From positions 9,233 through 73,232 of the forward strand of contig JAFAZI010000031.1 in the NCBI GenBank assembly GCA_019239875.1: DNA of 64,000 nucleotides, read 5' to 3'. How positions within the stretch are numbered: position 1 is the first letter of the stretch; each line of letters begins with the position of its first letter. Source of the DNA: Frankiaceae bacterium. GTDB taxonomy: Bacteria > Actinomycetota > Actinomycetes > JAFAQI01. Made by a program: the position numbers and the translations under genes. Below, piece by piece: positions 1,991 to 35,127 of the stretch. The notes below the pieces were generated by a model. It was not told the origin of the DNA. It was given only the letters and a program-made list of their open reading frames with translations, and did not search any database.

Positions 1991-2902
1991 TCAGCCCGTG
2001 AGCAGGTCCGGGCGCAGCGCCTCGACCATGCGACGGAAGCCGTCCTTCCAGTGCACGGTCGAGTGGCCGACCAGCTCGTGCATCTTGTCGAGATTCAGCT
2101 CGACACTCTGCAGGGAGTTCTCGGACACGACCAGGTTCGCTGGGAGGCCGGTCAGCTCGGAGAGGTACGCGGTCCACTCCTCGACGCTGACCTTCTCGTC
2201 ACCGCCCCAGTTCACGATGGTGGCGGGGACACTCGCGATCTCGATGAGGCGCGGGATAGTCGCCACGATGTCGTCCGTGTGCAACGGCTGGAAGACGCTT
2301 GGCGCATCCGCGTGGATGGCGATGTCCTGGCCGGCTTCCATCATCGCGAGATGGATGAAGGGCCAGCCGCCGCCGTCGCCGTAGGGGACGTTGAGGCGGG
2401 CGATCGTGGTCGGCAGGTCGTAGCGGCGAGCCGCGTACCGGACCGCCGACTCCGCTGCGATCTTCGAGATCGAGTACGTCGGGAGGAAGTACGCGCGATG
2501 GTTGTCGCCGAGCGGCGAGTCCTCGTGAAACTCGGTGTGGCCGTCGGGCTGGTAGACCGCCGTCGTGGAGCAGTGGAAGAACGCCTTCGCCTGGTGGTAG
2601 CGCTCCATCAGCGTGAGCACTCCGCCGACGTTGCCGTCGAGGTCGACGCCCCACTTCTGGCTCTTCACGACGGCGAAGTGCAGGACGTAGTCGACCGACT
2701 GCGGCAGGTCGCTGACGTCGGCGTTGACAAGGTCAGCACGGACCGTCGTGATGCCGTGGGACTCGAAGAGTTCCCGCGCGGCGGCGTCGCGCCACCGCGC
2801 CGCGCCGTACACCGTGTTCTCCTTCGCCAGCGAGATCGCGACCGGCTTGGCGACCTCGCTGGTGATCCCCGTCACGAGGACGGTGGCACCGGAGACGCTC
2901 AC
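1991..2902 (-). CDS. NAD-dependent epimerase/dehydratase family protein (extended SDR)
   Basis: N-terminal Rossmann motif VLVTGITSEVAKPV. The TYSISK segment resembles the catalytic YxxxK. Its start overlaps the upstream stop (ATGA). Confidence 0.75.
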   Translation of the reverse strand: MSVSGATVLVTGITSEVAKPVAISLAKENTVYGAARWRDAAARELFESHGITTVRADLVNADVSDLPQSVDYVLHFAVVKSQKWGVDLDGNVGGVLTLMERYHQAKAFFHCSTTAVYQPDGHTEFHEDSPLGDNHRAYFLPTYSISKIAAESAVRYAARRYDLPTTIARLNVPYGDGGGWPFIHLAMMEAGQDIAIHADAPSVFQPLHTDDIVATIPRLIEIASVPATIVNWGGDEKVSVEEWTAYLSELTGLPANLVVSENSLQSVELNLDKMHELVGHSTVHWKDGFRRMVEALRPDLLTG

Positions 2903-4005
2903 GGCCCGACCGAACCGAGATCGGTGAACCCGCTCGGCGTGTGCTTGCCGATCGTGCCGTGCTCGAACAGGCCCCAGCCGACGTCGTCACCGATCTGAGC
3001 CCGGCCGACGTGGTCGATGACACCCCACGGTGACCTGGCGTCGACGGCAGGATCGGTGAAGTCATAGGTCGCGCCCTCGACCCAGTCCCGGCCTCGCCAC
3101 TGGCCGTGGGTCCAGTCCGGGTCCCCGCCGTACCCGCATCCCACGTGCAGCGGTACGGCGAGTAGCGCGTCGACCTCCATCACGAGCGGCCGGCCATCCG
3201 GCTCGGTCAGCTCGACCCGGGCGTGCTCGGGGATCCGGGTGCCGGAGCGGTAGGTGATCGTCACGCGCGGCCACCCGAGTTGCTCGGTCCGGCCATCGGG
3301 CAGGATGCGCACGGCGTCGTTCAAGGTTCGATGCCCGTTGCCGTCCTCCTGGACGATGATCATGATCGAGTAGTCATCGAAGCGGACCGGGATGTAGAGC
3401 CAGTAGAAGCCGAAGTCATCGGCGTTGTCGGCCGGGCGGCCCGCCGGCTCGGCGTCGCCGACCGGGCGGATCCCCCACGACCGGTCGCGAGAGCCCACCC
3501 AGACCGCCGGGTCGACCGTGATGGTCTCGCCGTCCATCCGGATCTCGCCCTCCCACGAGCCGAGCTGGGCGAACCGCGATGCCTCCACGATCGGGCGAAT
3601 GCCCTGGCGCAGGATGTGGTGCTCCTCGTCGACGGTCGGAAACGAGCCCCGCCACGTCAGGTCGAAGCCCAGCCCGTGGTCGTCGCCGTCGCAGACGAGC
3701 CGGATCTCGTGCAAGGGCTCGACGACCTCGACGCGATACGGGCCGACCGTGACGTTGAGCCGCTCGTCGTCGAGTGCGTCGGAGCACCGGATCACGCGCT
3801 GGGTGGTGCCGCGCCGCACGACGGCGTAGGCGTCCTTGACCCCGAGCTGCGGATAGATGCCGGCACCTGTGATCAGGAAGATGTCACCCGTGCGGTCGTG
3901 GGCGTTGAAGTAGCAGCGGTCGTAGAAGTTGCGGTCGCTGGTGCCGACGTACCTCATCGACAGCGGGGTCTGGTGGACCGGGTATTCGTCCATGGGGACA
4001 GGCAT
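2899..4005 (-). CDS. conserved hypothetical protein (unknown function)
   Basis: The track ORF 2899..4473 has an Arg/Pro-rich, non-protein-like N-terminal 156 aa. I place the start at ATG 4005 (MPVPMDEYPVHQ), 14 bp after the upstream phosphotransferase stop, with a GA-rich RBS. Confidence 0.55.
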   Translation of the reverse strand: MPVPMDEYPVHQTPLSMRYVGTSDRNFYDRCYFNAHDRTGDIFLITGAGIYPQLGVKDAYAVVRRGTTQRVIRCSDALDDERLNVTVGPYRVEVVEPLHEIRLVCDGDDHGLGFDLTWRGSFPTVDEEHHILRQGIRPIVEASRFAQLGSWEGEIRMDGETITVDPAVWVGSRDRSWGIRPVGDAEPAGRPADNADDFGFYWLYIPVRFDDYSIMIIVQEDGNGHRTLNDAVRILPDGRTEQLGWPRVTITYRSGTRIPEHARVELTEPDGRPLVMEVDALLAVPLHVGCGYGGDPDWTHGQWRGRDWVEGATYDFTDPAVDARSPWGVIDHVGRAQIGDDVGWGLFEHGTIGKHTPSGFTDLGSVGP

Positions 4006-6344: not shown

Positions 6345-6407
6345 GGCGTCACCGTAGTGAGCGGCACTGACATCTTCGGGTGACTCGCGCACTGGCAGAA
6401 ATGAGGG

Positions 6408-6896
6408 ATGGCGCTCGGGCCCGATCCGGTCCACGATGAGCCGATGGAGCAGCGCATCGACATCGTCACGCTGGGTGTCCACGACGTGAAGGCGGCGCGT
6501 GAGTTCTACGTCGAAGGACTCGGGTGGGAGATCGCGCTCGAAGTTCCCGGTGACATCGTCTTCGTCCAGGTGAACCACGGACTGCTGCTCGCGTTCTTCG
6601 GGGCCGAGGATCTGGCCGCCGACGTGTCCGCGGGACAGCGAAGCGATCCGGCCGCCCATCCGCCGCCGATGAGCCTTGCGCAGGTCGTCACCGACGAGGA
6701 CGAGGTCGTGGCGGTCTGCGAGCGGGCCCGTGCCGCCGGCGCCACGATCCTCAAGGAGCCGCAGGCCGCGGACTTCGGCGGCTTCCACTGCTACTTCGCC
6801 GACCCGTCCGGCTTCCACTGGGAGGTCTCGACCAATCCCGGCTGGCAGGTCGACGAGCATGGCCGCGTGACGATCGGCACGGTCGACACCGCCTGA
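6408..6896 (+). CDS. VOC family protein (glyoxalase-like)
   Basis: VOC-fold features (IVTLGVHDVKAAREFYVEGLGWE...FHCYFADPSGFHWEV). An alternative start at ATG 6444 (MEQRIDIV) is possible. Confidence 0.7.
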   Translation: MALGPDPVHDEPMEQRIDIVTLGVHDVKAAREFYVEGLGWEIALEVPGDIVFVQVNHGLLLAFFGAEDLAADVSAGQRSDPAAHPPPMSLAQVVTDEDEVVAVCERARAAGATILKEPQAADFGGFHCYFADPSGFHWEVSTNPGWQVDEHGRVTIGTVDTA

Positions 6897-20311: not shown

Positions 20312-21031
20312 ATGTCAGCCGCCGATGCCTCACCGACGGTGGCAGGCGTCGTCGTCATCATCCCGGCCCTCAACGAGGAAGTTCGCATCTCGGCGACGGT
20401 CGGATCGGCACAGCGCCTGGCGAATGTCTGCCATGTCATCGTCGCCGACGACGGCTCCACCGACAGCACAGCGGAGCTGGCGTCTGCGGCTGGCGCTCAG
20501 GTCGTCCGTCACGACCGGCGGCGTGGCAAGGCAGCGGCAATGACGACCGGCGCTGCTGCCGCAAGGGAGGCGGGGTACGGCGAGTACCCCCTGCTGTTCC
20601 TCGACGCTGATCTGGAGGCGTCTGCGGCGAACGCCGGCCCGCTCATCGCACCGGTCATCAAGGGGGCGGCGGACATGACGATCGCTGTCCTTCCGCCGGC
20701 GGTCGGCGGTGGCGGCAGGGGGTTCGTCATGCGATTAGCCGCGTCAGGTATCGAGCAGGCGACCGGCTGGCGTCCGACCGCGCCGTTGTCCGGGCAGCGG
20801 TGCATCACGCGAGGACTGTTCGACTCGGTCCTGCCGCTGGCGCCGGGCTTCGGTGTCGAGACCGGTCTGACCATCGACGCCCTGCGGCACGGTGCCAAGG
20901 TCAAGGAATGCCCCGCCGACCTCGGGCATCGCGTCACGGGCACCAGCTTCCGGGACCAACGACATCGGGCGCGCCAGTACCGCGACGTGTGGCGGGCGCT
21001 GGCGGCCCGGCGGGTCATCCGGTTCCGCTGA
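20312..21031 (+). CDS. family 2 glycosyltransferase (polyprenol-phosphate sugar transferase-like)
   Basis: GT-A fold: VVIIPALNEE...VIVADDGSTD...LFLDADL (DxD). The track ORF 19775.. has a junk N-terminal 179 aa. Start placed at ATG 20312 after an AGGGTGA RBS. Confidence 0.75.
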   Translation: MSAADASPTVAGVVVIIPALNEEVRISATVGSAQRLANVCHVIVADDGSTDSTAELASAAGAQVVRHDRRRGKAAAMTTGAAAAREAGYGEYPLLFLDADLEASAANAGPLIAPVIKGAADMTIAVLPPAVGGGGRGFVMRLAASGIEQATGWRPTAPLSGQRCITRGLFDSVLPLAPGFGVETGLTIDALRHGAKVKECPADLGHRVTGTSFRDQRHRARQYRDVWRALAARRVIRFR

Positions 21032-21044
21032 TTACTCTGGCCGT

Positions 21045-22058
21045 GTGCCGATAGCGACGCTGGACCAGCTGAGTCGGCCGGTCCGCGACCTGCGCCTGTC
21101 GGTCACCGACCGCTGCAACTTTCGCTGCCCGTATTGCATGCCCCGGTCGAAGTTCGGCGCCGACCATGCCTTCTCCCCGCGGGCGGAGCTCCTGACCTAC
21201 GAGGAGCTTGCCCGGCTGGTGGGCATCTTCGCGGGGCTCGGCGTGACCAAGGTCCGGCTCACCGGCGGCGAGCCACTGCTTCGCCGTGACCTCGAGACGT
21301 TGATCGCCATGATCGCGGCCACGCCGGGGATCGACGACGTTGCACTGACCACGAACGGGTCGCTGCTCGCCGATCGAGCCGCGACCCTGCGCGCGGCCGG
21401 CTTGCGCCGGATCACCGTCAGTCTCGACAGCGTCGACCCGCAGATGTTTGCCGCCATGACCGACTCCCCGATCGCGCTCGACACCGTGCTGGGTGGAATC
21501 GCAGCAGCGCAGGCAGCCGGCCTGACACCGGTGAAGGTGAACGCCGTCGTGCAGCGCGGCGTGAACGAGGCCGGTCTGCTCGACCTCGCGGAGTTCGCCC
21601 GGCAACAGGGCCTCGTGCTTCGCTTCATCGAGTACATGGACGTCGGCACGACGAACGAGTGGCAGAGCGGTGCCGTCGTACCGGCGGCGGAGATCATCGA
21701 ACGGATCGCCGCCGTGCACCCGCTCGAGCCGATCGCGGCGACGATTCGCGGCGAGGTCGCGAGACGCTGGCGGTACACCGATGGCGGTGGGGAGATCGGG
21801 GTGATCGCTTCCGTCACCCAGCCGTTCTGCACCGACTGCACCCGCGCCCGGGTGACGGCGACCGGCGAGTTGTTCACGTGTTTGTTCGCCGCGCGCGGTC
21901 GTGATCTCCGCGGGTTGCTTCGGGCAGGTGCATCCGACGCCGAGCTGGTGGATTTGATCGTAGGCGTGTGGCATGCGCGGACGGATCGGTACTCGGAGCA
22001 ACGCAGTGCGGATCACCAGAGCGGTCGCCGCGCCGAGATGAGCTACCTCGGAGGCTGA
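21045..22058 (+). CDS. moaA: GTP 3',8-cyclase (molybdenum cofactor biosynthesis protein A)
   Basis: Radical-SAM CNFRCPYC motif and C-terminal MoaA Cys cluster (CTDCTRARVTATGELFTC). Start placed at GTG 21045, just after the GT2 stop; an earlier in-frame start would overlap GT2. Confidence 0.8.
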   Translation: MPIATLDQLSRPVRDLRLSVTDRCNFRCPYCMPRSKFGADHAFSPRAELLTYEELARLVGIFAGLGVTKVRLTGGEPLLRRDLETLIAMIAATPGIDDVALTTNGSLLADRAATLRAAGLRRITVSLDSVDPQMFAAMTDSPIALDTVLGGIAAAQAAGLTPVKVNAVVQRGVNEAGLLDLAEFARQQGLVLRFIEYMDVGTTNEWQSGAVVPAAEIIERIAAVHPLEPIAATIRGEVARRWRYTDGGGEIGVIASVTQPFCTDCTRARVTATGELFTCLFAARGRDLRGLLRAGASDAELVDLIVGVWHARTDRYSEQRSADHQSGRRAEMSYLGG

Positions 22059-22082
22059 CCGGTCGCACCGCCGTTAGCCTTC

Positions 22083-22754
22083 TTGCCCATGGGGCTGCGG
22101 ATCGTCATCGCCGAGGACTCGTTGCTGGTCCGCGAGGGTGTGCGGGGCGTGCTCGACAGCCAGGACGACTTCGAGGTTGTCGGGCTGTGCGAGGACTTCG
22201 ACGGGTTGCTGGCCGCAGCCGACGAGCACCAACCTGATGTCGTGGTCACCGACGTCCGGATGCCACCGACCCAGAGCGACGAGGGGATCCGTGCGGCGCT
22301 GCAGCTGCGCGAGACACATCCGCGCGTGGGGGTCGTCGTGCTGTCGCAGTACGCCGAGCCGGCGTACGCACTGCCGCTGCTCGAGACCGGCAGCGACGGC
22401 CGCGCGTACCTGCTCAAGGAGCGGGTCAGCGAGCCCGCTCAGCTCGCCGAGGCGGTCCGCGCTGTTGCAACCGGCGGATCGGTGATCGACCCGAAGGTCG
22501 TCGAGGTGCTCGTGTCCGCACGGTCCGCCCAGAGCAGATCCCCGCTCGAACAGCTCACACCTCGGGAGCTGGAGGTCCTCGCCGAGATCGCGCAGGGCAA
22601 GAACAACGCGGCAGTCGCGGCGGCGCTGTTCCTCACCGAGCGCGCTGTCGAGAAGCACATCAACGCGCTGTTCGCGAAGCTGCAGCTGACCGACGAACCC
22701 GACGTCAACCGCAGGGTGAAGGCGGTCCTTCTCTACCTGTCCGAGACTGCGTAG
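22083..22754 (+). CDS. NarL/LuxR family two-component response regulator
   Basis: REC domain (VVTDVRMPP) plus C-terminal LuxR HTH (LTPRELEVLAEIAQGKNNAAVAAALFLTERAVEKHINALFAKL). Confidence 0.85.
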   Translation: MPMGLRIVIAEDSLLVREGVRGVLDSQDDFEVVGLCEDFDGLLAAADEHQPDVVVTDVRMPPTQSDEGIRAALQLRETHPRVGVVVLSQYAEPAYALPLLETGSDGRAYLLKERVSEPAQLAEAVRAVATGGSVIDPKVVEVLVSARSAQSRSPLEQLTPRELEVLAEIAQGKNNAAVAAALFLTERAVEKHINALFAKLQLTDEPDVNRRVKAVLLYLSETA

Positions 22755-22825
22755 TAGCACCCCCTCGGCTGGCATGTGGACACCCTTGGCCGTGACACCC
22801 GGGCACCGCACGATAGGAGGTCACC

Positions 22826-23200
22826 ATGGTGGAGGAGGCGAGCGAGATGGACGTGCTGGTCGTTGACGACCAGCCGACCTTCCGCGCCGTCGCTCGCACC
22901 CTGGTCGGTCTGACTCCAGGTTTGCGGGTCGCCGCCGAAGCTGAGTCCGGGGAGCAGGCGGTCGAGCTCGCCGGCCGGATCCATCCTCCTGTCGTGCTGA
23001 TGGACATCAACCTGCCCGGCATCTCGGGCATCGAGGCGACCCGGCTGCTGCGCGAGCACGACCCGTCGGTGACGGTGATCTTGATGTCCACGTACGCCGC
23101 TGCCGACCTCCCGGCGGACGCGATGGACAGCGGCGCCGTGGGCTACGTGCGCAAAGAAGACCTGACGCCGGCTGCGTTGACTGCCCTGCTACCCGACTGA
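22826..23200 (+). CDS. stand-alone response regulator receiver (REC-only) protein
   Basis: 124 aa: DVLVVDDQPTF...VLMDINLPGISG, with no output domain. A perfect AGGAGG RBS precedes the ATG. Its 3' end overlaps the convergent kinase gene by 12 bp. Confidence 0.75.
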   Translation: MVEEASEMDVLVVDDQPTFRAVARTLVGLTPGLRVAAEAESGEQAVELAGRIHPPVVLMDINLPGISGIEATRLLREHDPSVTVILMSTYAAADLPADAMDSGAVGYVRKEDLTPAALTALLPD

Positions 23201-24760
23201 CGCCGCGAGCGGCTCGCACGGTACGTCGCCGCGGATCGTCGTGCCGGTTCCGGCCGCAGAGATCACGGACAGGGTGCCGCCGATCGCGCCGAGCCGGTCG
23301 GCCATGTTGGTGAATCCGTGTCCGAACTCAGTTGCGGCCGGATCGAACCCGGGGCCGTTGTCGTGCACTTCGAACGCGAGGCCGGTGTCGGTCACGTTGA
23401 TCGTCACGCTGACTTCGGCACCCTCGCCGGCGTACTTGCCGGCGTTCTGTAGCGCCTCGAGACAGCAGAAGTACGCCGCTGCCTCCGCCTCCGCCGGGTA
23501 TCGGCCGGGGAGGTCGGCCGTGACCGAGACCGGAAGAACCGAGCGATTCGCGGCGGTGGCGAGCGCCTCCCGAAGCCCTCGGTCACGCAACAACGGCGGG
23601 TAGATTCCGTGCGCCAGCTCGCGCAGCTCGCCGATCGTGGTCTGGACGTCGGCCCGGAGCTCGTCCAGCAGCTCGGAGACCGTGGGGGAGCCCTCGCCCA
23701 CCACCTGTTTGGCGAGTCCGAGCTTCACGGCCAGGGCGACGAGGTGCTGTTGTGCTCCGTCGTGCAGGTTGCGCTCGATGGCACGCCGGGATTCATCTGA
23801 CGCGGCCACGATGCGGGCGCGGGAGGCCTGGAGCTCGACGTTGCGCTCTTGCAGCTCCTGCAGCGACGCCTGGAGAGCGGAGTCGAGCCGAACGTTGTGG
23901 AGCGCGAGGCCGACCTGGCGCGCGAGATCGGCAAGCACGCTGTCCTCGTCGTCGCCGTACGGCGGCGCCTGGCCGTCACGCCCGACGACGATCAGACCCA
24001 GCAGTTCGCCGAGATGGGCGATCGGTGCAACTCGGAACTGATGCCGCTCACGACCCTCGAGCATCGACGGCAACCAGACCTGCAACCACGTGTTGCCGCT
24101 GACCCGCGCGTGGGCGGCAACGCGTCGCTCCTCATCGCCGAGCTTGAGCGCGGGACGCCCCCGGTCGGGTACCGCAACGGCGATCTCGAGGTGGCCGTCG
24201 ATGCCGGTCCAGATCTCTGCGCCTGCCGGTCCGATCGTCGCGTGCAAGGTCTCGGCGAGTTGGAGCAACAGCTCGTCCATCGGAACGGCGCGAGTCATCC
24301 GGGCGCCGAACGTCTCCAACGCAGTCGACACCGGTCGCGGGTCCTCACCGGACCAGCGGCGGGCCAGGTCGAGCAGCCGCTGCCGCGCGGGCTCGGCGAG
24401 GATCACCGCAACGACGGCTGCCACCATCGACAGTCCAAGCACGTGTCGCTCGTTGCCTTCGGGTGAGGATCCGAGTCCGATCACGATCACGACGTACGCG
24501 CCGAGCACCAGACCGATCAGGCCACCGGTGACAACGCCGTACCGCAGCGCACGGTCGGCGTGGACTCGCAAGGCGGGGATCCGGCCCAGGATCAGCCCGA
24601 GTGGCAGACCAGCAAGCGCAACGAGACAGATCGCGCCGATCGCGCCGGGCCGCCCGACCAGCAGGTGGAAGCCGGTCGCCGTCCCGGCGACGACGACCGT
24701 CGCAAGGACTCCGGTGACGGTCCACAGGAAGCCGGAGGTGCGGGTCGTGGTTGTCGTCAT
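23189..24760 (-). CDS. sensor histidine kinase (multi-TM N-terminus, GAF-like region, HisKA_3 + HATPase_c)
   Basis: HisKA_3 H-box ERNLHDGAQQHLVAL and an HATPase_c region with GxG motifs. Start ATG 24760 overlaps the permease stop (TGATG). Confidence 0.8.
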   Translation of the reverse strand: MTTTTTRTSGFLWTVTGVLATVVVAGTATGFHLLVGRPGAIGAICLVALAGLPLGLILGRIPALRVHADRALRYGVVTGGLIGLVLGAYVVIVIGLGSSPEGNERHVLGLSMVAAVVAVILAEPARQRLLDLARRWSGEDPRPVSTALETFGARMTRAVPMDELLLQLAETLHATIGPAGAEIWTGIDGHLEIAVAVPDRGRPALKLGDEERRVAAHARVSGNTWLQVWLPSMLEGRERHQFRVAPIAHLGELLGLIVVGRDGQAPPYGDDEDSVLADLARQVGLALHNVRLDSALQASLQELQERNVELQASRARIVAASDESRRAIERNLHDGAQQHLVALAVKLGLAKQVVGEGSPTVSELLDELRADVQTTIGELRELAHGIYPPLLRDRGLREALATAANRSVLPVSVTADLPGRYPAEAEAAAYFCCLEALQNAGKYAGEGAEVSVTINVTDTGLAFEVHDNGPGFDPAATEFGHGFTNMADRLGAIGGTLSVISAAGTGTTIRGDVPCEPLAASVG

Positions 24761-27135
24761 CACTCTGCCCTCAGGATCTCGCTGACCCGCAGCCGCGCAG
24801 CGCGGCGCGCCGGGACAGTGGCGAGCGCGTTCGCTGCGGCGACCGTCGCCGGCACTGCGCCAAGTACGACGGCCAGGGCCAGCGGCGCGACGTACAGCAC
24901 CGGCGTCGCATGGGCCAGCACCCGCCATCCAGTGCGGCCGATCGCGACACCCAGGGGAATTCCGATCACGAGCCCGACGAGCGCGAGCACCGTGGCCTGC
25001 ACGATCACGATCAACCGGGTCTGCCACCGCGTCATGCCCAGGGCGCGGAGCACCGCCACATCACGGCGCCGACGCCGGACTGCGGTCGCGAGTCCGTGGC
25101 CGACCGCGCCGGTCGCCAGCAATAGGAGGAACCCGCCGAGCAGCATCGGCTCGATCCGCACGCTCCGCAGCTCGATCTGCTGCTGCGGCGTTATGAACTC
25201 CGTCGTCAAACCCACGCCGCCCGGCGCGAGGCCTTTCGGAAGTCGTGAGAAGGCCGCCTGCGGATCGACCCCGGGCGCCAGGTCGAACCGGACCTCATGG
25301 AACTTGTCATGCGCCTGGCTGGGCTGAACGACCGCGAAGCCGGCCGTGGTCAGCCACGCGCCGTCCGTGTAGTCGTTGTGAGGGTTCTCGGGGACGAAAG
25401 TGACGCCGCTGACGGTCAGTTGATGACCGTCCACCGAGACGGTGTCGCCAGCATGCATGCCGAGATCTTTCGCCGTGGTCGGTCCGAGCGAGATCTCGTC
25501 AGGGCCGACCGGCGCTCGACCGGACAGGGCGACGATGTCTACCGACCCGACGATCGGCGTGATCGACGTCGTACTCGTCGGGCGACCGTTGACGGTGACC
25601 ACCGCCACGCGCATGTCGTCGAGCGCCGCGATGTCAGGGTCGTGCTTGACCTCGGACAGTGCCTTGGCGAACGACGGCGGTGGCGCACCCTCACTGACGA
25701 AGCCGAACGCGTCGAAGGTCTGGCCGTAGCGGTTGAGGTCGTCCACGGTGCCCGACAGCCCGGCCCGGAAGGTGAGGGCGCCAACGACCCCGATGACGCC
25801 GGCGGCAGCGCCCGCGAGTGCGGGGCGCACCGGGACTCTGGCCTTTCCCCGACCTGGCTCGAGGGCGAACCGGGTGCCGAGGACCGCGCTGACGTGCAGC
25901 CGTGACCGACTCGCCGTGCTGGCCACCCACGAGCGGTGGTCCGGCTCGTCAGCCGACTCACGGGCGACCGTTCGCGACGACACGTAGGCGCCCAGGATTC
26001 CCAACCCCAGCACGCCGATTCCCCCGAGGCTGAGCACTAGGGGATCCAGGTTGGTACCGGGCGTCGGCTCGTACTTGCCCGCGATGCCGGAGGGAAAGAG
26101 CGAAGACATGGCGATGGCGCTCCCGACCGCCCCGATCGTGCCCGCGACCGATGCGATGACCGGGCCGCTCGCGGCCGCGAGCCGGATCTGGGTTCGATCC
26201 ATGCCGACGGCGCTGAGGGCTCGCAGCTCATCCGTCGCTCCGCTTCCGAACCTCGCGAACGCCTGACCCAGCAGGATCAACGAGGCAACGAGCGCGATCA
26301 GCGCGAAGAGCAGCCAGCTGATCGTGGTGAACGTTGCGGTGCGTTGCAGGATCCGGTCGACCGTGTGCTGGTCGGCAACCTGCACGTCGGCGTCGCCCGG
26401 GATGCTCGCGAGCTCCTTGGAGAACTCCGGGATGGCCGCAGCGCCACCGTTGAGAATGACTCGGGCGTTCTTGAAGTACGGGAAGACCGGTTTGATGAAC
26501 TTCACAAAGAACGCGTGGGTCGGCATGTAGACGGGCCCGCCGCCGGGCCCGAGGTCGAAGGTGTTGACGCCGATCCCGACGACGTGAAGCTGAACCGTCG
26601 GTCCGGCGTACGTCGTGCCCGGGGGGAACGCACTTCCCGGTCGCAACGAGTCGACCTGTGCCTTGGATGGCAGCTGAACCGAGATGGTGCGCCCGTACTT
26701 GCCGACGAAGCCCGGACTCGCCACGATCTCGTACGGGTTGCTCGGATCGGCGGTCCTACCGCTGATGATCTTGGGCCGATCGATTGCGATGTTCTGGGTG
26801 AGATCCCCACCCGGGAATCCGGCGACGGTGCCGAAGTCGAAGCCGACGCCCTTTGGCGCGACACCTTCAGCGAGCACGAACGTACCGAGCGTCTTCACCG
26901 CCGGCAGCCGGCGCACCGGACCCCATCGAAACCCGGGCTGGTTCGGCAGCACCATGACGTCGGCCGGCGCGATCGCGCTGTTGAGCCGGGTCAGCACGGT
27001 GTCGGTGCGCCGGGCTCCGGCTGTCGTGGCGATGATGACGCCGCCGGCCATCGTGATCAGCAGCGCGAGGACCACGAGGGAGCGCCATCGGCGCCGGAGG
27101 TCGAGGCGCGCGAACGCTAGTACGGCGGCCATCAC
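24760..27135 (-). CDS. ABC transporter permease, FtsX/MacB-like with a large extracytoplasmic domain
   Basis: 791 aa, with N- and C-terminal FtsX-type 4-TM bundles separated by a large loop. Architecture resembles BceB/MacB. Confidence 0.8.
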   Translation of the reverse strand: MMAAVLAFARLDLRRRWRSLVVLALLITMAGGVIIATTAGARRTDTVLTRLNSAIAPADVMVLPNQPGFRWGPVRRLPAVKTLGTFVLAEGVAPKGVGFDFGTVAGFPGGDLTQNIAIDRPKIISGRTADPSNPYEIVASPGFVGKYGRTISVQLPSKAQVDSLRPGSAFPPGTTYAGPTVQLHVVGIGVNTFDLGPGGGPVYMPTHAFFVKFIKPVFPYFKNARVILNGGAAAIPEFSKELASIPGDADVQVADQHTVDRILQRTATFTTISWLLFALIALVASLILLGQAFARFGSGATDELRALSAVGMDRTQIRLAAASGPVIASVAGTIGAVGSAIAMSSLFPSGIAGKYEPTPGTNLDPLVLSLGGIGVLGLGILGAYVSSRTVARESADEPDHRSWVASTASRSRLHVSAVLGTRFALEPGRGKARVPVRPALAGAAAGVIGVVGALTFRAGLSGTVDDLNRYGQTFDAFGFVSEGAPPPSFAKALSEVKHDPDIAALDDMRVAVVTVNGRPTSTTSITPIVGSVDIVALSGRAPVGPDEISLGPTTAKDLGMHAGDTVSVDGHQLTVSGVTFVPENPHNDYTDGAWLTTAGFAVVQPSQAHDKFHEVRFDLAPGVDPQAAFSRLPKGLAPGGVGLTTEFITPQQQIELRSVRIEPMLLGGFLLLLATGAVGHGLATAVRRRRRDVAVLRALGMTRWQTRLIVIVQATVLALVGLVIGIPLGVAIGRTGWRVLAHATPVLYVAPLALAVVLGAVPATVAAANALATVPARRAARLRVSEILRAE

Positions 27136-27184
27136 TCGGCTCGCAACACGTCAGCCGGCCGCCTCGTCCACACGAGGATGGCGG

Positions 27185-27934
27185 TCACGGCGTGGCGACC
27201 GCCTCGGACGCCAGGTCATCGCTGACCACCTTGCCGTCGTGCATTCGAACGATGCGTGACGCGCCCGCCGCCACCTCGGCGGAGTGCGTGACCATCAGGA
27301 TCGTCTGCCCGTCGTCGTGCAATCGGCGGAACAGCTCGAGGACCTCGTTGCCGCCGTCACTGTCGAGGGCTCCGGTTGGCTCATCGGCGAGCAGCAGAGT
27401 TGGCGAGTTGACGAGAGCGCGAGCGATCGCCAGGCGTTGGCGTTGGCCGCCAGACAGCACGGCGGGCAGCTGTGCCGTGCGATCACCGAGGCCCAGCAGG
27501 TCTAGCAGATCACGAGCCCGCGACTCCGCCGGCTTGCGCTTCGATCCTCCGATCACTGCAGGGAGGACGAGGTTCTCGAGGCAGCTGACCCCGTCGAGCA
27601 GGTTGAAGAACTGGAAGACGATGCCGACGTTGTGCCGCCGGAACCGGGCTAGCCAGTCCTCGTCGCGCCCGGTGATGATCTGGCCGTCGACGACGATCTC
27701 GCCCTCGTCGGCGACGTCGAGTCCGGCGACGAGGTTCAACAAGGTCGACTTGCCGCAACCGGATGGGCCCATGAGGGCGACGAACTCGCCCGCGGCGATG
27801 TCTAGATCGGCACCTCGAAGCGCCCTGACCGGAGCCAGCTCGGCCGTGAACGTCTTCCGGACGCCTCGTACCGACAGCGCGCTGGCGGCAGGCGCGGCGG
27901 AGCTCGCTCCGGTGGCGTTGGTCGTGGTGGTCAT
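27185..27934 (-). CDS. ABC transporter ATP-binding protein (MacB/LolD/BceA-like)
   Basis: Walker A GPSGCGKSTL, signature LSGGQRQRLAIARAL, Walker B LLLADEPTGALD. Start overlaps the upstream stop (ATGA). Confidence 0.85.
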   Translation of the reverse strand: MTTTTNATGASSAAPAASALSVRGVRKTFTAELAPVRALRGADLDIAAGEFVALMGPSGCGKSTLLNLVAGLDVADEGEIVVDGQIITGRDEDWLARFRRHNVGIVFQFFNLLDGVSCLENLVLPAVIGGSKRKPAESRARDLLDLLGLGDRTAQLPAVLSGGQRQRLAIARALVNSPTLLLADEPTGALDSDGGNEVLELFRRLHDDGQTILMVTHSAEVAAGASRIVRMHDGKVVSDDLASEAVATP

Positions 27935-29289
27935 GCGCGTGCCCCCCCAGGGCTGGTCGGTTCGATGGTGGTTGATTCTGTCGCGTGCGCCGGCCCGAGG
28001 ACGCGCGCCGCGGTGACCGGCATGACGCGTCCTTTGACCTTCTGTGCCGGCAGCGATTCGAACTGCCAGCCGTTGCCGAGCTCGGCCGTCGGTCCGCTGA
28101 CCACCGTGGTGCCGGCCGGTCGGGCGAGGTCCTGGAGACGCTGGGCCAGGTTCACGATGTCGCCGACGACGGTGTACTCCAAGCGCTCCTCGCTGCCCAG
28201 AAGCGCCGCCGCGACCTCACCAGTCGACAGGCCGATCCCCAAGCCGAACGGAGAGAGTCCGGCGGCACCCCATGTGGCGTCGAGCGCCGCCTGCCGCTCG
28301 TGCATCGCCGCAGCCGCGGCAAGCGCCTGCGTCGCATGATCAGCCTGCGGGAACGGCGCCCCGAACACCGCCATCACCGCGTCCCCGACGTACTGCATCA
28401 CCGTGCCGCCGTGAGAGAGGACTGCCGCGTTCATCTCCCGGCGGTGCTCGTTCAACTGACCGGCGAGCGCCGCCGGGTCGGTGCGCTCCGCGATGCCGGA
28501 GTAGCCGCGAACGTCGGACATGAGCACCGTGACGGTCAGGCGCTCGGTCTGGCCCGGCTGGCCGCCCTGCTCCCGGAGCTTGCGAACGAGCCCACCGGGA
28601 AGAAGTCGCGACAATGTCTCGCCCTGTTCTTCCCGATCGACGATTGCCTGCTGCAGCATCCGTAGTCGACGCAGCGCGCCCTCCCGACCGGCTGTGGCAT
28701 CCTGCGCCAGATGCAGGAACAGTGCTTCGATCTCGCCATTGATCGTCTCGAGCGGGCAGGCCCGGGCGGCGGCGATCGCCTTGACCGTGCGTCCCTCGGC
28801 GATCATCCGCAGCAGGTCCTCCTCGGCTGGGGCGAGCTCGTCCGGGCCTCGCACCGGGGTCACGAGGGCAGCGACGATCTCCGGGTCGAGCATCGACCCG
28901 CCGGTCGCGACCTCGCGAATCGCACGGGCCAGCCGGTCGCCATCCGCGACGCGGTCCTTCAGCAGATAGGCGAAGCCGGCGGCGCCGTCGGAGAGCAGTG
29001 ACACCGCATACTCCGGCTCGTCGTACTGGGAAAGCACGACAACTCCCGTTCCTGGCAGCCGTCGCCGGATCTCCTTGGCGGCCTCGATGCCTTCGTTCTG
29101 GAACGACGGGGGCATCCGGATGTCGGTGACGAGAACCTGCGGCGCGAGCGACGACGCGGTGTCGACGAGCTCGTCGTAGTCACCGGCCACGCCGACGACG
29201 TCGACCTCAGGGTCACGATCGAGGAGGGCGCGCACGCCCTCGCGGACGATCAGGTTGTCGTCCGCCAGCACCACGGTGATCGCTTGCAC
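27931..29289 (-). CDS. response regulator (REC + degenerate LuxR-type HTH) fused to a class III nucleotidyl (adenylate/guanylate) cyclase domain
   Basis: The REC domain is about 60% identical over ~100 aa to the regulator at 22083 (IRMPP...VVVLSQY...LLKDRV...VATGGS). A LuxR-like helix follows (LLRMIAEGRTVKAIAAA). The C-terminal cyclase has the metal-binding Asp residues (VLMSDVRGYS, YVGDAVMAVFGAP) and the transition-state NxxxR (DIVNLAQR). Confidence 0.8.
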   Translation of the reverse strand: MQAITVVLADDNLIVREGVRALLDRDPEVDVVGVAGDYDELVDTASSLAPQVLVTDIRMPPSFQNEGIEAAKEIRRRLPGTGVVVLSQYDEPEYAVSLLSDGAAGFAYLLKDRVADGDRLARAIREVATGGSMLDPEIVAALVTPVRGPDELAPAEEDLLRMIAEGRTVKAIAAARACPLETINGEIEALFLHLAQDATAGREGALRRLRMLQQAIVDREEQGETLSRLLPGGLVRKLREQGGQPGQTERLTVTVLMSDVRGYSGIAERTDPAALAGQLNEHRREMNAAVLSHGGTVMQYVGDAVMAVFGAPFPQADHATQALAAAAAMHERQAALDATWGAAGLSPFGLGIGLSTGEVAAALLGSEERLEYTVVGDIVNLAQRLQDLARPAGTTVVSGPTAELGNGWQFESLPAQKVKGRVMPVTAARVLGPAHATESTTIEPTSPGGARA

Positions 29290-29450
29290 GGGGCCATTAA
29301 CCCGCGCCGGGGCCGATCAGCGAAAGGGGGGCAATGCCCGTGTTCTCGGATGCTGGCACCCCTACCGGTTCACGGGGCTGCGCCCTCGTACCCACCGAGC
29401 GCGATTCCTACGGTGACGGAAGGCCGCTGGACTCGGCGCGACCTTAGGGA

Positions 29451-30458
29451 GTGGTGGGGATGAAGGTAACTGGCAGCGCGACGTCGATCTCATGGATTCC
29501 CTCGGAGGCCGTCACTGGCCCGACGAAGGCAACGTTCGGGCTCGGAATCAGCCACTACGACAGCCCGCCGCCTGACGTCATCACGGATCTTGAAGGCCTG
29601 TGTGCCGCGGACGGCTTCCGCTTCGCGAACCGCCTCACGGTGACCGCCGAGTTCGACGGTGACCGCCTCGTTTCCCATGACGTCGAAGGCGGGATCGTCA
29701 TGGGGGCCACGACGGTGAACGTCGCCAAGCTCGGCGCGACCTTCGAGGCGGTGTCGCTGCCGGACCTGCGGGCGCCGGTGGAGAAGGGGCCCGGATGGGT
29801 CCGCGTCACGCAGACCTGTGGCGGTCGTACGGCGCTGCCGCTGCCTCGCCCGGTCCGTCACCCACCGTTCGTCAAGCTGCAGGCTCCGATCGTGTGGACG
29901 ACGATCGCGCTGACCCTGCACTCCGACGGCCGTACCGAGGTCGCGCTGCCGAGCGCGAGCCGGTTCCCGCGGCACTGGGTCTATGACACCGACGGCAAAC
30001 TCGTGCTCAAGACGGCGCTCGCGGAATATCACGAGTGGATGGCTCATTCGTTCGGCAAGCGGACCCCGTGGGGCAACGACGACTCACAGGTCGTGACGAC
30101 CGCCGCTGAGACCGCGCTGGAACGCGACCTGTCCACCCGGATCATGCGAGCCGACGCCACGCACGACGTGCACAAACTCGACGCCGGCACCGTCCTCGCG
30201 AAACAAGGCGACCCTGGCGACGAGCTCTACCTTCTGCTCGACGGTGTCCTCTCGGTGGACGTCGATGGCGAGTCTGTCGCCGAGCTCGGTCCCGGCGCGG
30301 TTGTCGGCGAGCGAGCCGTGCTCGAGGGAGGTCGTCGTACGTCGACCCTGACGGCCAGCACGAGGGCAAAGGTCGCAGCGGTGGCCGCCGCCGACATCGA
30401 CCTGGATCGCCTTCGGGAGCTGGCAGAAGGACACAACCGGGAGTCCGCCGACTCCTGA
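29451..30458 (+). CDS. cyclic nucleotide-binding domain protein with an N-terminal domain of unknown function
   Basis: C-terminal CAP-family cNMP-binding beta-barrel (LLDGVLSVDVDGESVAELGPGAVVGERAVLEGGRRTSTLTA). The N-terminal ~220 aa carries no domain I recognise, no TM segment and no HTH. It is divergent from the cyclase-fusion gene across a 161-bp spacer. ATG 29460 is an alternative start. Confidence 0.7.
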   Translation: MVGMKVTGSATSISWIPSEAVTGPTKATFGLGISHYDSPPPDVITDLEGLCAADGFRFANRLTVTAEFDGDRLVSHDVEGGIVMGATTVNVAKLGATFEAVSLPDLRAPVEKGPGWVRVTQTCGGRTALPLPRPVRHPPFVKLQAPIVWTTIALTLHSDGRTEVALPSASRFPRHWVYDTDGKLVLKTALAEYHEWMAHSFGKRTPWGNDDSQVVTTAAETALERDLSTRIMRADATHDVHKLDAGTVLAKQGDPGDELYLLLDGVLSVDVDGESVAELGPGAVVGERAVLEGGRRTSTLTASTRAKVAAVAAADIDLDRLRELAEGHNRESADS

Positions 30459-30745
30459 GTGGCGATCGGTCGACACCGATGGGCCATGCGCCCCTCAGGC
30501 GACGCCGAGCCGTGCGAAATGGGCGGTAAGAGTGTCCCCGGCCGCCCTTTCCGCCCGGCTCGGCGATCGTGTCGACACCGATGGGCCATGCGCCGAGGTG
30601 ACGCCGAGCCGTGCGAAATGGGCCGTAAACCCCGGCATTTTGGCCCGTTTCGCGTGGCTCGGCGATCGGTCGACACCGATGGGCCATGCGCACCCCGACC
30701 TGCGCACCGATGGGCCATGCGTGCGCGGCGCTCGGCGATCGGTCG

Positions 30746-30750
<5 letters not shown>
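30459..30750. repeat. intergenic tandem repeat, ~3 copies of a ~100-bp unit
   Basis: The unit core GGCGATCG(G/TG)TCGACACCGATGGGCCATGCGC recurs at 30461, 30562 and 30661, with a fragment at 30706. Each copy is followed by a second conserved block, GACGCCGAGCCGTGCGAAATGGGC(G/C)GTAA (30501, 30600). The period is 99-101 bp with roughly 85% identity. It lies between the convergent 3' ends of the cNMP-binding gene and lon. Confidence 0.8.
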
Positions 30751-33109
<2,359 letters not shown>

Positions 33110-33201
33110 TGCCTGTCTTCGAGCCGATCAGAGTTGAGTCCGGTTCGCTCAACGGCAGGATGCGCCAGATTGTTTCCGGTGTTCGCTCTGCGAGAACGCC
33201 G

Positions 33202-35127
33202 CTACTTCCGCGCGATCGGGGCGGTGATCAGCTCGTCAGGAATGCCGAAGGCCTCGACAAGGTCGGAGGCGAACGGCCGTAACGCATGACAGAGGTCGTT
33301 CACCGCAGTGGTGATGGCCTTGCTTCGAGTGGGCGTGAGCCGGTTGTGTTCGAGGAACCAGGCGCGTTCGGCCTCGATCGTCGCCAGCGCGTGAAGGTCC
33401 GCAAGCCGCGACATCAACACCTTGGTATCGCCATCCTCCATTCGCTCGACGGCGGCCGCGAACGCCTCCATGATGCGGGCGTCGGCGTGCGCGCGAGCGG
33501 CGAGCAGCAGGTGGTCCTGCGCGTGATTGAAGACGACGAACGGATCCTCGTCGGCCTCGAATCCCTTCTTGAGGCGCCGCGCGACACCCTCGAGCGTGTG
33601 CTTCTCCCGGAACGCGATCAAGGACAGCTGGTAGTCGCGATCCGTGAGGTTGGTGTCCTCGTCCGTGCCGGGGATCGCGTCGACGATGCGTTGGAACAGC
33701 GCCCGCGCTCCGGTGCGCTCGATCACGACTTCGGCGACGTGCTCGGCGACGAACCGCACCGTGCCGATGCTGTCGAGCTCACCGAACTCGGCCTGGAAGT
33801 TGGTGAGCAGGGTCTTCGCGACCAGCTGGAGCAGGACGGTGTTGTCGCCTTCAAAGGTTGTGAAGACGTCGGTGTCGGCCTTGAGTCCCGCCACCTGGTT
33901 CTCGGCGAGGTAGCCCGCGCCGCCGCAGGCCTCGCGGCAGTCCTGGATGGTCTTCGTCGCATGCCAGGTGGAAACGGCCTTCAGTGCGGCGGCGAAGGTC
34001 TCGAGCTTGCGCCGAGCCGCATCGTCGTCGGTGCATTCGGTTTGAACCTCGTGGAGCTCACCGACCAGTTCGGCCTGGGCGAAGCTGAGGGCGTACGTCT
34101 TCGCCAGAGCGGGAAGCAGCACTCGCTGATGGGCCAGATAGTCGAGGACCGCGATCTCGGTCTCGCTGTCCGGTGCCTTGAACTGCCGGCGGCGGTCGCC
34201 GTAGCGAACCGCGATCAGCAGTGCTTTCTTGGCAGCGCTCACGGCCGCACCGGAAATGCTGATCCGGCCCTGAACCAGCGCGCCCAGCATCGTGAAGAAC
34301 CGCTTGTTCTCGCTCTCGATGGAACTGGAGTAGGTGCCGTCCGCTGCCACCGTGCCGAACCGGTCGAGCAGGTTGTCGCGGGGGATCCGGACGCCGTCGA
34401 ACGAGATCCGACCGTTGTCCACGCCGTTCAGGCCGGCCTTGATGCCGTCGTCCTCGATGCGGACGCCGGGTTGGATCTCGCCGGTCTCATCGCGGATCGG
34501 AACCAGGAACGCGTGGACGCCGTGTGACTCGTCGTTAGTGATCAACTGGGCAAACACCGCCGCCATCCGGCCGTGGCGCGCCGCGTTGCCGATGTAGTCC
34601 TTGCGCGCCTCGTCGTCGGGCGTCGAGATGACGAACTCATCCGTCGCCGGGTCGTAGGTCGCCGTCGTACGCAGCGATTGGACATCGGAGCCATGACCGG
34701 TCTCGGTCATCGCGAAGCAACCGGGGAGGGCGAGCGACAAGATGTCTTCGAGGTAGCGGTCGTGGTGCCGCTTCGTGCCCAGGTTGCGCACGGTGCCTCC
34801 GAACAGCCCCCACTGCACGCCACCCTTCACCAGCAGGGAGAGGTCTCCGAACGCCTGCGTCTCGAAGCCACTGATCGCACCTCCCACCTCGTCGAGGCCG
34901 CCGTACTCCTTCGGGAACAGCAGTTTGGGCCCGTCGCTCTTGGAGATTGCGAGGGCCTGCTCGAAGATGTGGTCGCGCTGCTCGTCGAGGGTGAGGCCCT
35001 CACGCGGGACGAACACCGGATCGCGCAGCGTCTCGCGTGCTTGGTCGCGGACGTCCGCCCACCGGCCGTCGAGCAGTCGGCGGATCCTTGCCACATCGAT
35101 GTCCAGGTCGAGGGCGTCGATCGTCAT
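33202..35127 (-). CDS. acyl-CoA oxidase
   Basis: 641 aa with an acyl-CoA dehydrogenase/oxidase fold (CFAMTETGHGSDV, ACGGAGYL) and an ACOX C-terminal domain. Confidence 0.85.
   Translation of the reverse strand: MTIDALDLDIDVARIRRLLDGRWADVRDQARETLRDPVFVPREGLTLDEQRDHIFEQALAISKSDGPKLLFPKEYGGLDEVGGAISGFETQAFGDLSLLVKGGVQWGLFGGTVRNLGTKRHHDRYLEDILSLALPGCFAMTETGHGSDVQSLRTTATYDPATDEFVISTPDDEARKDYIGNAARHGRMAAVFAQLITNDESHGVHAFLVPIRDETGEIQPGVRIEDDGIKAGLNGVDNGRISFDGVRIPRDNLLDRFGTVAADGTYSSSIESENKRFFTMLGALVQGRISISGAAVSAAKKALLIAVRYGDRRRQFKAPDSETEIAVLDYLAHQRVLLPALAKTYALSFAQAELVGELHEVQTECTDDDAARRKLETFAAALKAVSTWHATKTIQDCREACGGAGYLAENQVAGLKADTDVFTTFEGDNTVLLQLVAKTLLTNFQAEFGELDSIGTVRFVAEHVAEVVIERTGARALFQRIVDAIPGTDEDTNLTDRDYQLSLIAFREKHTLEGVARRLKKGFEADEDPFVVFNHAQDHLLLAARAHADARIMEAFAAAVERMEDGDTKVLMSRLADLHALATIEAERAWFLEHNRLTPTRSKAITTAVNDLCHALRPFASDLVEAFGIPDELITAPIARK

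Follow-up and report, generated by a model that had tools for sequence, protein, structure and literature searches.

The convergent spacer and its repeat array

The window (the whole 64-kb stretch of DNA that was analysed) carries a gene for a cNMP-binding-domain protein that converges on lon, the gene of the Lon protease (Table 1). Measured from stop codon to stop codon, the spacer between them is 287 bp long (30459-30745) and is wholly occupied by a repeat array. The TGA stop of the cNMP-binding gene (30456-30458) lies 2 nt from the array start, and the stop codon of lon is at 30746-30748. An identical cNMP-binding product of 332 aa, with its ATG at 29460, is recorded in other assemblies. 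The Lon protein is 100% identical to an 'endopeptidase La' of a Frankiaceae bacterium (P0001), which comes from a MAG, and the next relatives are 85-86% identical. Upstream, a response-regulator-adenylate/guanylate cyclase gene (-) is divergent from the cNMP-binding-domain gene (+) within 27931-30458, and the two make a plausible pair of a cyclic-nucleotide producer beside its receptor.

Using TRF, a single array was found in the spacer (30461-30691, period 99, 2.3 copies, 83% matches, score 286). It was the strongest tandem repeat of the 64-kb window, where the runner-up had a TRF score of 57. The repeat counts were also above expectation. The 17-nt core CACCGATGGGCCATGCG of one module, which we call P, was present in 4 exact copies in the window (0.49 expected at <=3 mismatches), and the 24-mer of a second conserved block (block B) was present in 2 copies (0.00 expected). 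A preliminary description of this DNA had reported an intergenic tandem repeat between convergent genes that fills the entire spacer, and these results, with the flanking genes as it had described them, bear it out.

The same description had proposed a unit of about 100 bp, occurring three times and built from two conserved blocks. The period of 99 bp agrees with this, as do the three occurrences of block A (spacings 102 and 98 bp). The left part of block B, however, was found only twice (spacing 99 bp), and in the third 'copy' of the array a 31-bp sub-repeat takes its place. Block A is made up of the final bases of the right arm of a 63-nt inverted repeat, H, then a 9-10-nt junction and the P core; block B is the left arm of H. 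The two blocks do not make up a single unit; they belong to P and H, which are dispersed modules found separately and in other arrangements. The module order in the spacer is (H remnant)-P-H-P-H-P-P-(H remnant), in which both remnants adjoin stop codons and all four P cores share one orientation. This was the one P/H cluster in the 64 kb of the window.

Table 1. Genes and array elements at the cNMP-binding gene-lon spacer (window coordinates)
Feature	Position	Strand	Details
cNMP-binding-domain protein gene, upstream convergent	29460..30458	+	332 aa; Pfam cNMP_binding E = 1.3e-15
Truncated H right-arm end and H-to-P junction (GGCGATCGGTCGA), left array edge	30461..30473	+	identical 13 nt at 30661-30673, after H copy 2
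P core copy 1 (CACCGATGGGCCATGCG)	30474..30490	+	exact match
H copy 1, 63-nt imperfect hairpin, 22-24-nt arms, 15-19-nt variable centre	30503..30565	.	inverted repeat I1, 88% complementary
P core copy 2, junction ATCGTGTCGA (30566-30575) before core	30576..30592	+	exact match
H copy 2, 63-nt hairpin, 24-bp stem fully paired including G-U pairs	30602..30664	.	inverted repeat I2
Two head-to-tail 31-bp P units, cores 30674-30690 and 30705-30721	30674..30735	+	copy-number-variable part
Truncated H right-arm end and junction (CGCGGCGCTCGGCGATCGGTCG), reaching lon stop	30724..30745	+	direct repeat D5: 30724-30748 88% identical to 30651-30675
Lon protease gene, downstream convergent	30746..33106	-	786 aa; Pfam Lon_C, LON_substr_bdg, AAA, Lon_lid

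The two H copies have arms of 22-24 nt that are 87-88% complementary, and their centres differ. The H consensus is 63 nt long and GC-rich, with conserved 22-nt arms (CGCCGAGCCnnGCGrAAnGGGC) and a free centre. It is joined to P by a conserved junction, GGCTCGGCG-ATCGnnnnA-CACCGATGG. Before the second P core this junction makes a local palindrome, and the perfect palindrome that had been pointed out in copy 2 (GTGTCGACAC) is indeed present there. The GTCGAC-centred palindrome holds for this locus and is specific to it, since the junction of a sister locus reads ATCGAGCCACACCGAT.

When the unit was folded for hairpins, which the preliminary description had put forward as a check, H gave predicted energies of -41.5 kcal/mol (copy 1, z = -6.1) and -45.8 kcal/mol (copy 2, z = -6.7). 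Over the H copies as a whole the range was -41 to -47 kcal/mol, with z = -3.9 to -6.7, and for the whole spacer z was -5.4 on the + strand and -5.2 on the - strand. This 63-nt hairpin, the dominant structure of the array, was absent from the earlier account.

We also looked for other features that could account for the spacer. No tRNA or tmRNA was found in the window, and no sigma-70-like promoter site in 29800-31400. Hairpin-plus-T-run terminators numbered zero on either strand of that interval, in which H is present without a T-run. A search of 30000-31200 against Rfam at a permissive E-value gave mir-1307 as the best match, with 26 bits against a gathering score of 69; the others were lower, and we regard all of them as eukaryotic miRNA-model noise drawn by the long hairpin. 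With no promoter-like site and no Rfam match, the small-RNA locus that had been suggested here found no support. Five ORFs cross the array, and none had a Pfam match at E <= 1, so a degraded CDS was rejected. A CRISPR array was rejected too, because the stretches separating the P cores recur themselves, as H or as a 14-nt linker, with periods of 31 and about 100 bp. Using blastn, no similarity was seen to 72,556 plasmids or 50,697 phages. Scans of viral contigs gave two single P cores without the family flanks and no H, and on these grounds a phage or plasmid origin was also set aside.

Dispersal and conservation of the P and H modules

To follow P, we scanned 185,579 species-representative genomes with the pattern RCACCGATGGGCCATGCGY and obtained 26 loci. 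Ten of these were in four related MAGs, namely Mycobacteriales SMAG_U5597 (5), Frankiaceae co54_360 (3), Actinomycetota MFD05502 (1) and MFD04434 (1). The remaining 16 were single matches in unrelated taxa, and by our calculation about 17 are expected by chance from a pattern equivalent to an 18-mer. The scan gave 1-3 exact cores for each of the ten family loci, where the core was often repeated 2-4 times at an exact spacing of 31 bp. Two of the 8-kb family loci contained a second P array. Head-to-tail P arrays of this period adjoin stop codons at 12 or more loci in the four MAGs. Among the 185,579 species representatives, none of the Mycobacterium genomes had the exact core, and no cultured genome carried it in the family context.

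The loci with an exact core were all extragenic or abutted stop codons (5 in one MAG and 3 in another, plus arrays in the flanks). A stop codon lay within about 20 nt of one end in almost all arrays, with P in either orientation to the gene. Nearly all P cores of the other arrays were co-oriented, and a clear inverted doublet was seen only in L007. We considered a rule by which the first unit of each array is inverted. Only L007 bears it out firmly. In other arrays the unit at the end is a variant of almost perfect symmetry, whose orientation is given by the central base alone, and the rule was dropped. Immediately 3' of one P array (L030, ~480-700), the sequence ...CTGAGAGGG...ACCTGATCCGGGTCATGCCGGCGTAGGGA... 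resembles, by eye, a TPP (THI-box) riboswitch.

When 31 P units from the other MAGs and 15 from the window's community were aligned in register, the core was near-invariant. In the 31 units of the other MAGs, conservation was >=80% at nearly every core position. The flanks differ between the two groups. In the other MAGs they read TAGCC(A)-core-TGGGGCTA and form a 29-nt dyad, and in the window's community they read TAGCCGCG-core-CACCCC, with the dyad mostly gone. The 29-nt palindrome of the other MAGs (TAGCCACACCGATGG-G-CCATGCGTGGGGCTA) folds at -10.5 kcal/mol with z = -0.4, and single P units are no more stable than shuffled sequences (z = -0.4 to -1.0). Because the units fold like shuffles, and the palindromic flank is lost while the core stays, the alignment indicates that P is conserved as sequence and not as structure. 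Its invariance across lineages whose Lon proteins are ~83% identical, with the hairpin potential gone, suggests a sequence-specific partner.

The distribution of H was estimated from one metagenome scan with a degenerate pattern that fits all four H arms. About 130 arm matches were listed, of which ~114 were chance matches. We therefore counted as true H only those with a complementary partner arm, so that the distribution given here is a lower bound. Among the matches listed, 15 had such a partner arm, 18-20 of 22 positions being complementary, and in every case it lay at an offset of exactly 41 nt, so that the element is always 63 nt long. The remaining matches scored <=14. All 15 came from the window or from the JGI samples Ga0213876 and Ga0213882, which represent the same soil community. 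Beyond the window they represent the same locus in another contig (L079) and at least three other loci among the matches listed. One of these, found in two samples (L126 = L113), is a solo H between convergent genes, and another (L150) is a solo H adjoining a stop codon. The third (L104 and L144) consists of super-repeats of H plus 3-5 P units, and its contigs break within the array. As none of these contigs aligns to the window, the loci are distinct from the window locus. The H-to-P junction is common to the window and L104/L144, and the GTCGAC palindrome is not.

The arms were near-invariant among seven distinct H copies, and the centres were unrelated. In the stem 87% of cells were paired, against ~40% when the partners were slid. 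Covariation in the seven copies gave a null result: the paired and the compensatory counts equalled those of shuffles, and 15 of 24 pairs never vary. The compensatory change between H copies 1 and 2 (GGGCGG/CCGCCC vs GGGCCG/GGCCC) was likewise no better than shuffles over the 7 copies. Selection on pairing itself, as against conservation of a palindromic sequence, is not supported by these counts.

Copy number, assemblies and synteny

The number of 31-bp units varied between assemblies of the locus, with two in the window and L001 and three in L002 and L079. L002 was 100% identical to the window over 3.6 kb apart from one extra 31-bp unit. This difference of two against three could be VNTR-like, and an assembler effect is also possible. 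A search for the unit elsewhere, proposed in the preliminary description, thus returned both modules at other loci and an array of varying copy number. The possibilities that it had set against its own reading, a unit unique and invariant in copy number or blocks of a degraded CDS, were not what we found (the ORFs have no Pfam match).

The same lon is present on three short contigs, from NCBI, JGI and ENA (L001, L002 and L003), whose ends lie inside the array at 30480, ~30515 and 30674; the NCBI contig starts at window position 30480. A Logan contig carrying the cNMP gene (L155) ends 32 nt past the stop, at ~30490, the end of the first P core. Four of the six assemblies of the locus (L001, L002, L003 and L155) therefore break inside the array. 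The JGI contig L079 crosses the whole array with the same structure, and because this independent assembly spans it, the array is real and no assembly artefact. Compared with window 26612-34506, L079 (= L154) showed full identity (100%) up to the array from the cNMP gene, and 98.5% identity (55 mismatches, 3 gaps) on the side of lon. This contig would be either a natural strain recombinant or an assembly chimera joined at the repeat.

We observed that P arrays coincide with breaks of synteny, both between the window and L004/L005 and at both ends of the alignment of L007 with L008. These last two share 92.8% identity over 3.8 kb, and their homology ends exactly at P units on both sides. A P unit beside an exonuclease-III-like gene is common to them, single in L007 and doubled in L008. 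Between two P sites, L007 has a 383-aa ORF (2508-3659, -) with an N-terminal hydrophobic segment and Gly/Asn/Ser-rich repeats. It is missing at the matching place in the otherwise 93%-identical L008. Its product is likely a secreted repeat protein, judging from its composition. We had considered a RAYT for this P-bracketed gene, and rejected it since the likely product is a secreted repeat protein and not a transposase.

The ACOX-lon synteny with L004 and L005 stops at the array of the window, and their downstream genes correspond to window ~18-22 kb. The relatives with 85-86% identical Lon have no array and other neighbours. About 8.7 kb (window 22062-30745) separates lon from the moaA orthologue, where L004/L005 have NUDIX or moaA directly after lon. 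This segment encodes a LuxR-type response regulator, a HisKA_3 kinase, an FtsX/MacB permease, an ABC ATPase, the response-regulator-adenylate/guanylate cyclase and the cNMP-binding protein. We considered whether the array might mark one end of a mobile island covering these 8.7 kb. The GC content is uniform, the far boundary has no repeat, and the genes are commonplace ones for signalling and ABC transport. Because of the uniform GC and the missing far-end repeat we do not read the segment as a foreign island; it looks like a lineage-specific signalling and transport block. Beyond it, a 333-aa ORF (21015-22016, -) has no Pfam match, though the moaA region of L005 aligns to 21063-22061; the real gene there is probably the overlapping 388-aa ORF at 20892-22058 (+).

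In L004, an 85%-identical relative, the lon-NUDIX convergent spacer contains a perfect 14-bp inverted repeat, TGTGAACCGTCCGC...GCGGACGGTTCACA (6359-6418), which is unrelated to H and lies after the lon stop, at the position equivalent to the array. A potential hairpin right after the lon stop thus recurs, its sequence being different.

Interpretation and comparison with known repeat families

Together, these results make it likely that two lineage-specific interspersed repeat modules of an uncultured Frankiaceae/Mycobacteriales clade are clustered as a mosaic in the spacer. The array would have arisen and changed through slippage during replication or through unequal recombination across the 31-bp and the ~100-bp direct repeats. 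As both convergent transcripts must enter the array, its stable H hairpins are predicted to form a bidirectional barrier at the 3' ends, either as a U-tract-less terminator or as a shield from 3' exonucleases. The efficiency of terminators without a U-tract is debated in actinobacteria, and the absence of a T-run after H in 29800-31400 counts against the proposed barrier. The H hairpins probably act in both directions at the 3' ends; this reading draws on their stability, their position and the reports on REP/BIME and SPRITE (PMC3184786). P is probably recognised by a trans-acting protein, such as a transposase-like mobiliser or a DNA-binding protein. That proposal follows from the conservation of P as sequence and not structure, and it would account for both spread and invariance. 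No mobilising or binding protein was found; the sole P-bracketed gene inspected encodes the secreted repeat protein.

The proposal can be taken further. A conserved trans-acting protein of the clade, which could be a mobiliser derived from a domesticated transposase or a factor that binds DNA or RNA ends, would then recognise P as its site. The stop-abutting, 31-bp-phased arrays together with H would be a hitherto undescribed actinobacterial counterpart of REPIN-RAYT, without the GTAG tag or the hairpin requirement. We consider this distinctly unlikely.

The main alternative is that the array is mainly a protein-binding array at the DNA level, in which P serves a dimeric DNA-binding protein as an operator-like site and H is incidental. 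The sites would be repeated in phase, 31 bp being about three helical turns, much as in plasmid centromere repeats or nucleoid-protein sites. Several features of P are consistent with it. The core is invariant in lineages with differing flanks and lost hairpin potential, single units fold like shuffles, the 31-bp period is strict across many loci, and the core reads as a 19-bp dyad, imperfect in the form CACCGATGG-G-CCATGCGTG and perfect in the variant CACCAATGG-N-CCATTGGTG. We nevertheless regard the explanation as unlikely, though with some weight, because the P sites follow stop codons and are not at promoters, no candidate protein was found, and a selfish repeat equally predicts head-to-tail amplification, copy-number change and contig breaks. 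The helical-phase argument is inference only. The data fit a P binding array or a selfish-repeat origin, and both could hold.

The strong predicted structure on both strands, in a spacer directly 3' of both genes, could also point to a cis-regulatory element or small-RNA gene that is dedicated to lon or to the cNMP-binding gene. This is very unlikely, since the same modules lie after unrelated genes elsewhere, relatives with 85-86% identical Lon lack the array and have other neighbours, no promoter-like site is present and the Rfam scores are far under the gathering scores. An artefact, whether a degraded CDS, a mis-assembly or a CRISPR-like array, has next to no probability. High-GC ORFs do cross the array and many assemblies break there, but the five ORFs have no Pfam match, an independent assembly spans the same structure, and the supposed spacers between P cores are themselves repeated. 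The preliminary description had likened the array to MIRU of mycobacteria, and the likeness holds for the organisation, which is that of interspersed VNTRs, MIRU among them. That the array belongs to the MIRU family itself is not supported, and we consider a true member highly improbable. The clade belongs to the same order (Mycobacteriales), and the repeats are interspersed, head-to-tail, variable in number and intergenic as in MIRU (PMC3184786). Against this, the P unit has 31 bp and not 40-100 bp, the array lies between convergent genes and not in an operon with unit ORFs overlapping the neighbours, and no Mycobacterium species representative has the exact core.

On the preferred reading, as a cluster of interspersed repeat modules, the arrays have some practical consequences. 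They fragment short-read assemblies of the clade, and so affect the contiguity of MAGs, and they mark rearrangement junctions, and so affect synteny analysis. The 31-bp units offer a candidate VNTR marker with which strains of this uncultured group could be tracked. The general picture of bacterial repeats is unchanged unless the partner of P proves to be new.

Among the known families, REP/BIME, BOX and SPRITE have been associated with convergent 3' ends, recombination and mRNA stability (PMC3184786). The P and H modules resemble the REP elements and BIME clusters of Enterobacteria, Pseudomonas and Stenotrophomonas, which are short, GC-rich, extragenic palindromic repeats, dispersed over many loci, often clustered in mosaics with other motifs, biased to 3' ends and convergent genes, variable in copy number and associated with recombination and effects at mRNA 3' ends (PMC3184786, PMC2817692, PMC3733652). 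A REP is an imperfect palindrome of 20-40 bp with stem-loop potential, and one of its ends bears an unpaired tetranucleotide tag, GTAG or CGTC (PMC3733652). Here the P flank (C/A)TAGCC lies inside the dyad, GTAG occurs in a few L104/L144 units, and H starts with CGCC after variable bases. P thus differs from REP in being head-to-tail and without an unpaired tag, P of the window lineage is barely palindromic, and no RAYT gene was found at the one P-bracketed gene inspected; the H stem, with arms of 22-24 bp and a centre of 15-19 nt, is beyond the reported 5-13 bp. BIMEs are described as regularly spaced REPs of alternating orientation (PMC2817692), whereas the P cores are co-oriented, with the clear inverted doublet only in L007.

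BOX of Streptococcus pneumoniae has the form boxA-(boxB)n-boxC, an intergenic element with a tandem internal module and a stable structure (PMC3184786). A similar modular organisation was found here, in that the window, L079, L104 and L144 have H with 1, 2, 3 or 5 P units behind it, giving H-(P)n super-units with an internal module of variable number, as seen at L104/L144 and the window. The sequence is unrelated and the BOX host is a low-GC Firmicute; BOX also has fixed A and C ends, whereas here H-(P)n is itself iterated. SPRITE is a dispersed repeat that carries a terminator-like motif and has a bias to convergent 3' ends (PMC3184786). H resembles it, and the 'I-shaped' terminators of actinobacteria, in being GC-rich, without a T-run and at convergent 3' ends, with termination by H a prediction.

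MIRU consists of direct tandem units of 40-100 bp at about 40-50 intergenic loci, whose unit ORFs overlap the stop and start codons of their neighbours within operons (PMC3184786). The present repeats share with it the head-to-tail tandem units, the interspersed intergenic position, the variable number and the order (PMC3184786), and differ in unit size and gene context. The basic P unit is 31 bp, although the composite P+H unit at the window is ~99 bp, and the array lies between convergent genes with ORFs that have no coding support. The REP survey (PMC3733652) makes no mention of Actinobacteria, and the review (PMC3184786) mentions only MIRU for actinobacterial interspersed repeats. The P/H family is apparently undescribed, set apart from classical REP by the comparisons given here and from MIRU by the description of that family. 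The best reading, based on sequence and analogy, is that the P and H cluster is a lineage-specific interspersed repeat of an ordinary bacterial kind, like REP/BIME, BOX or MIRU.
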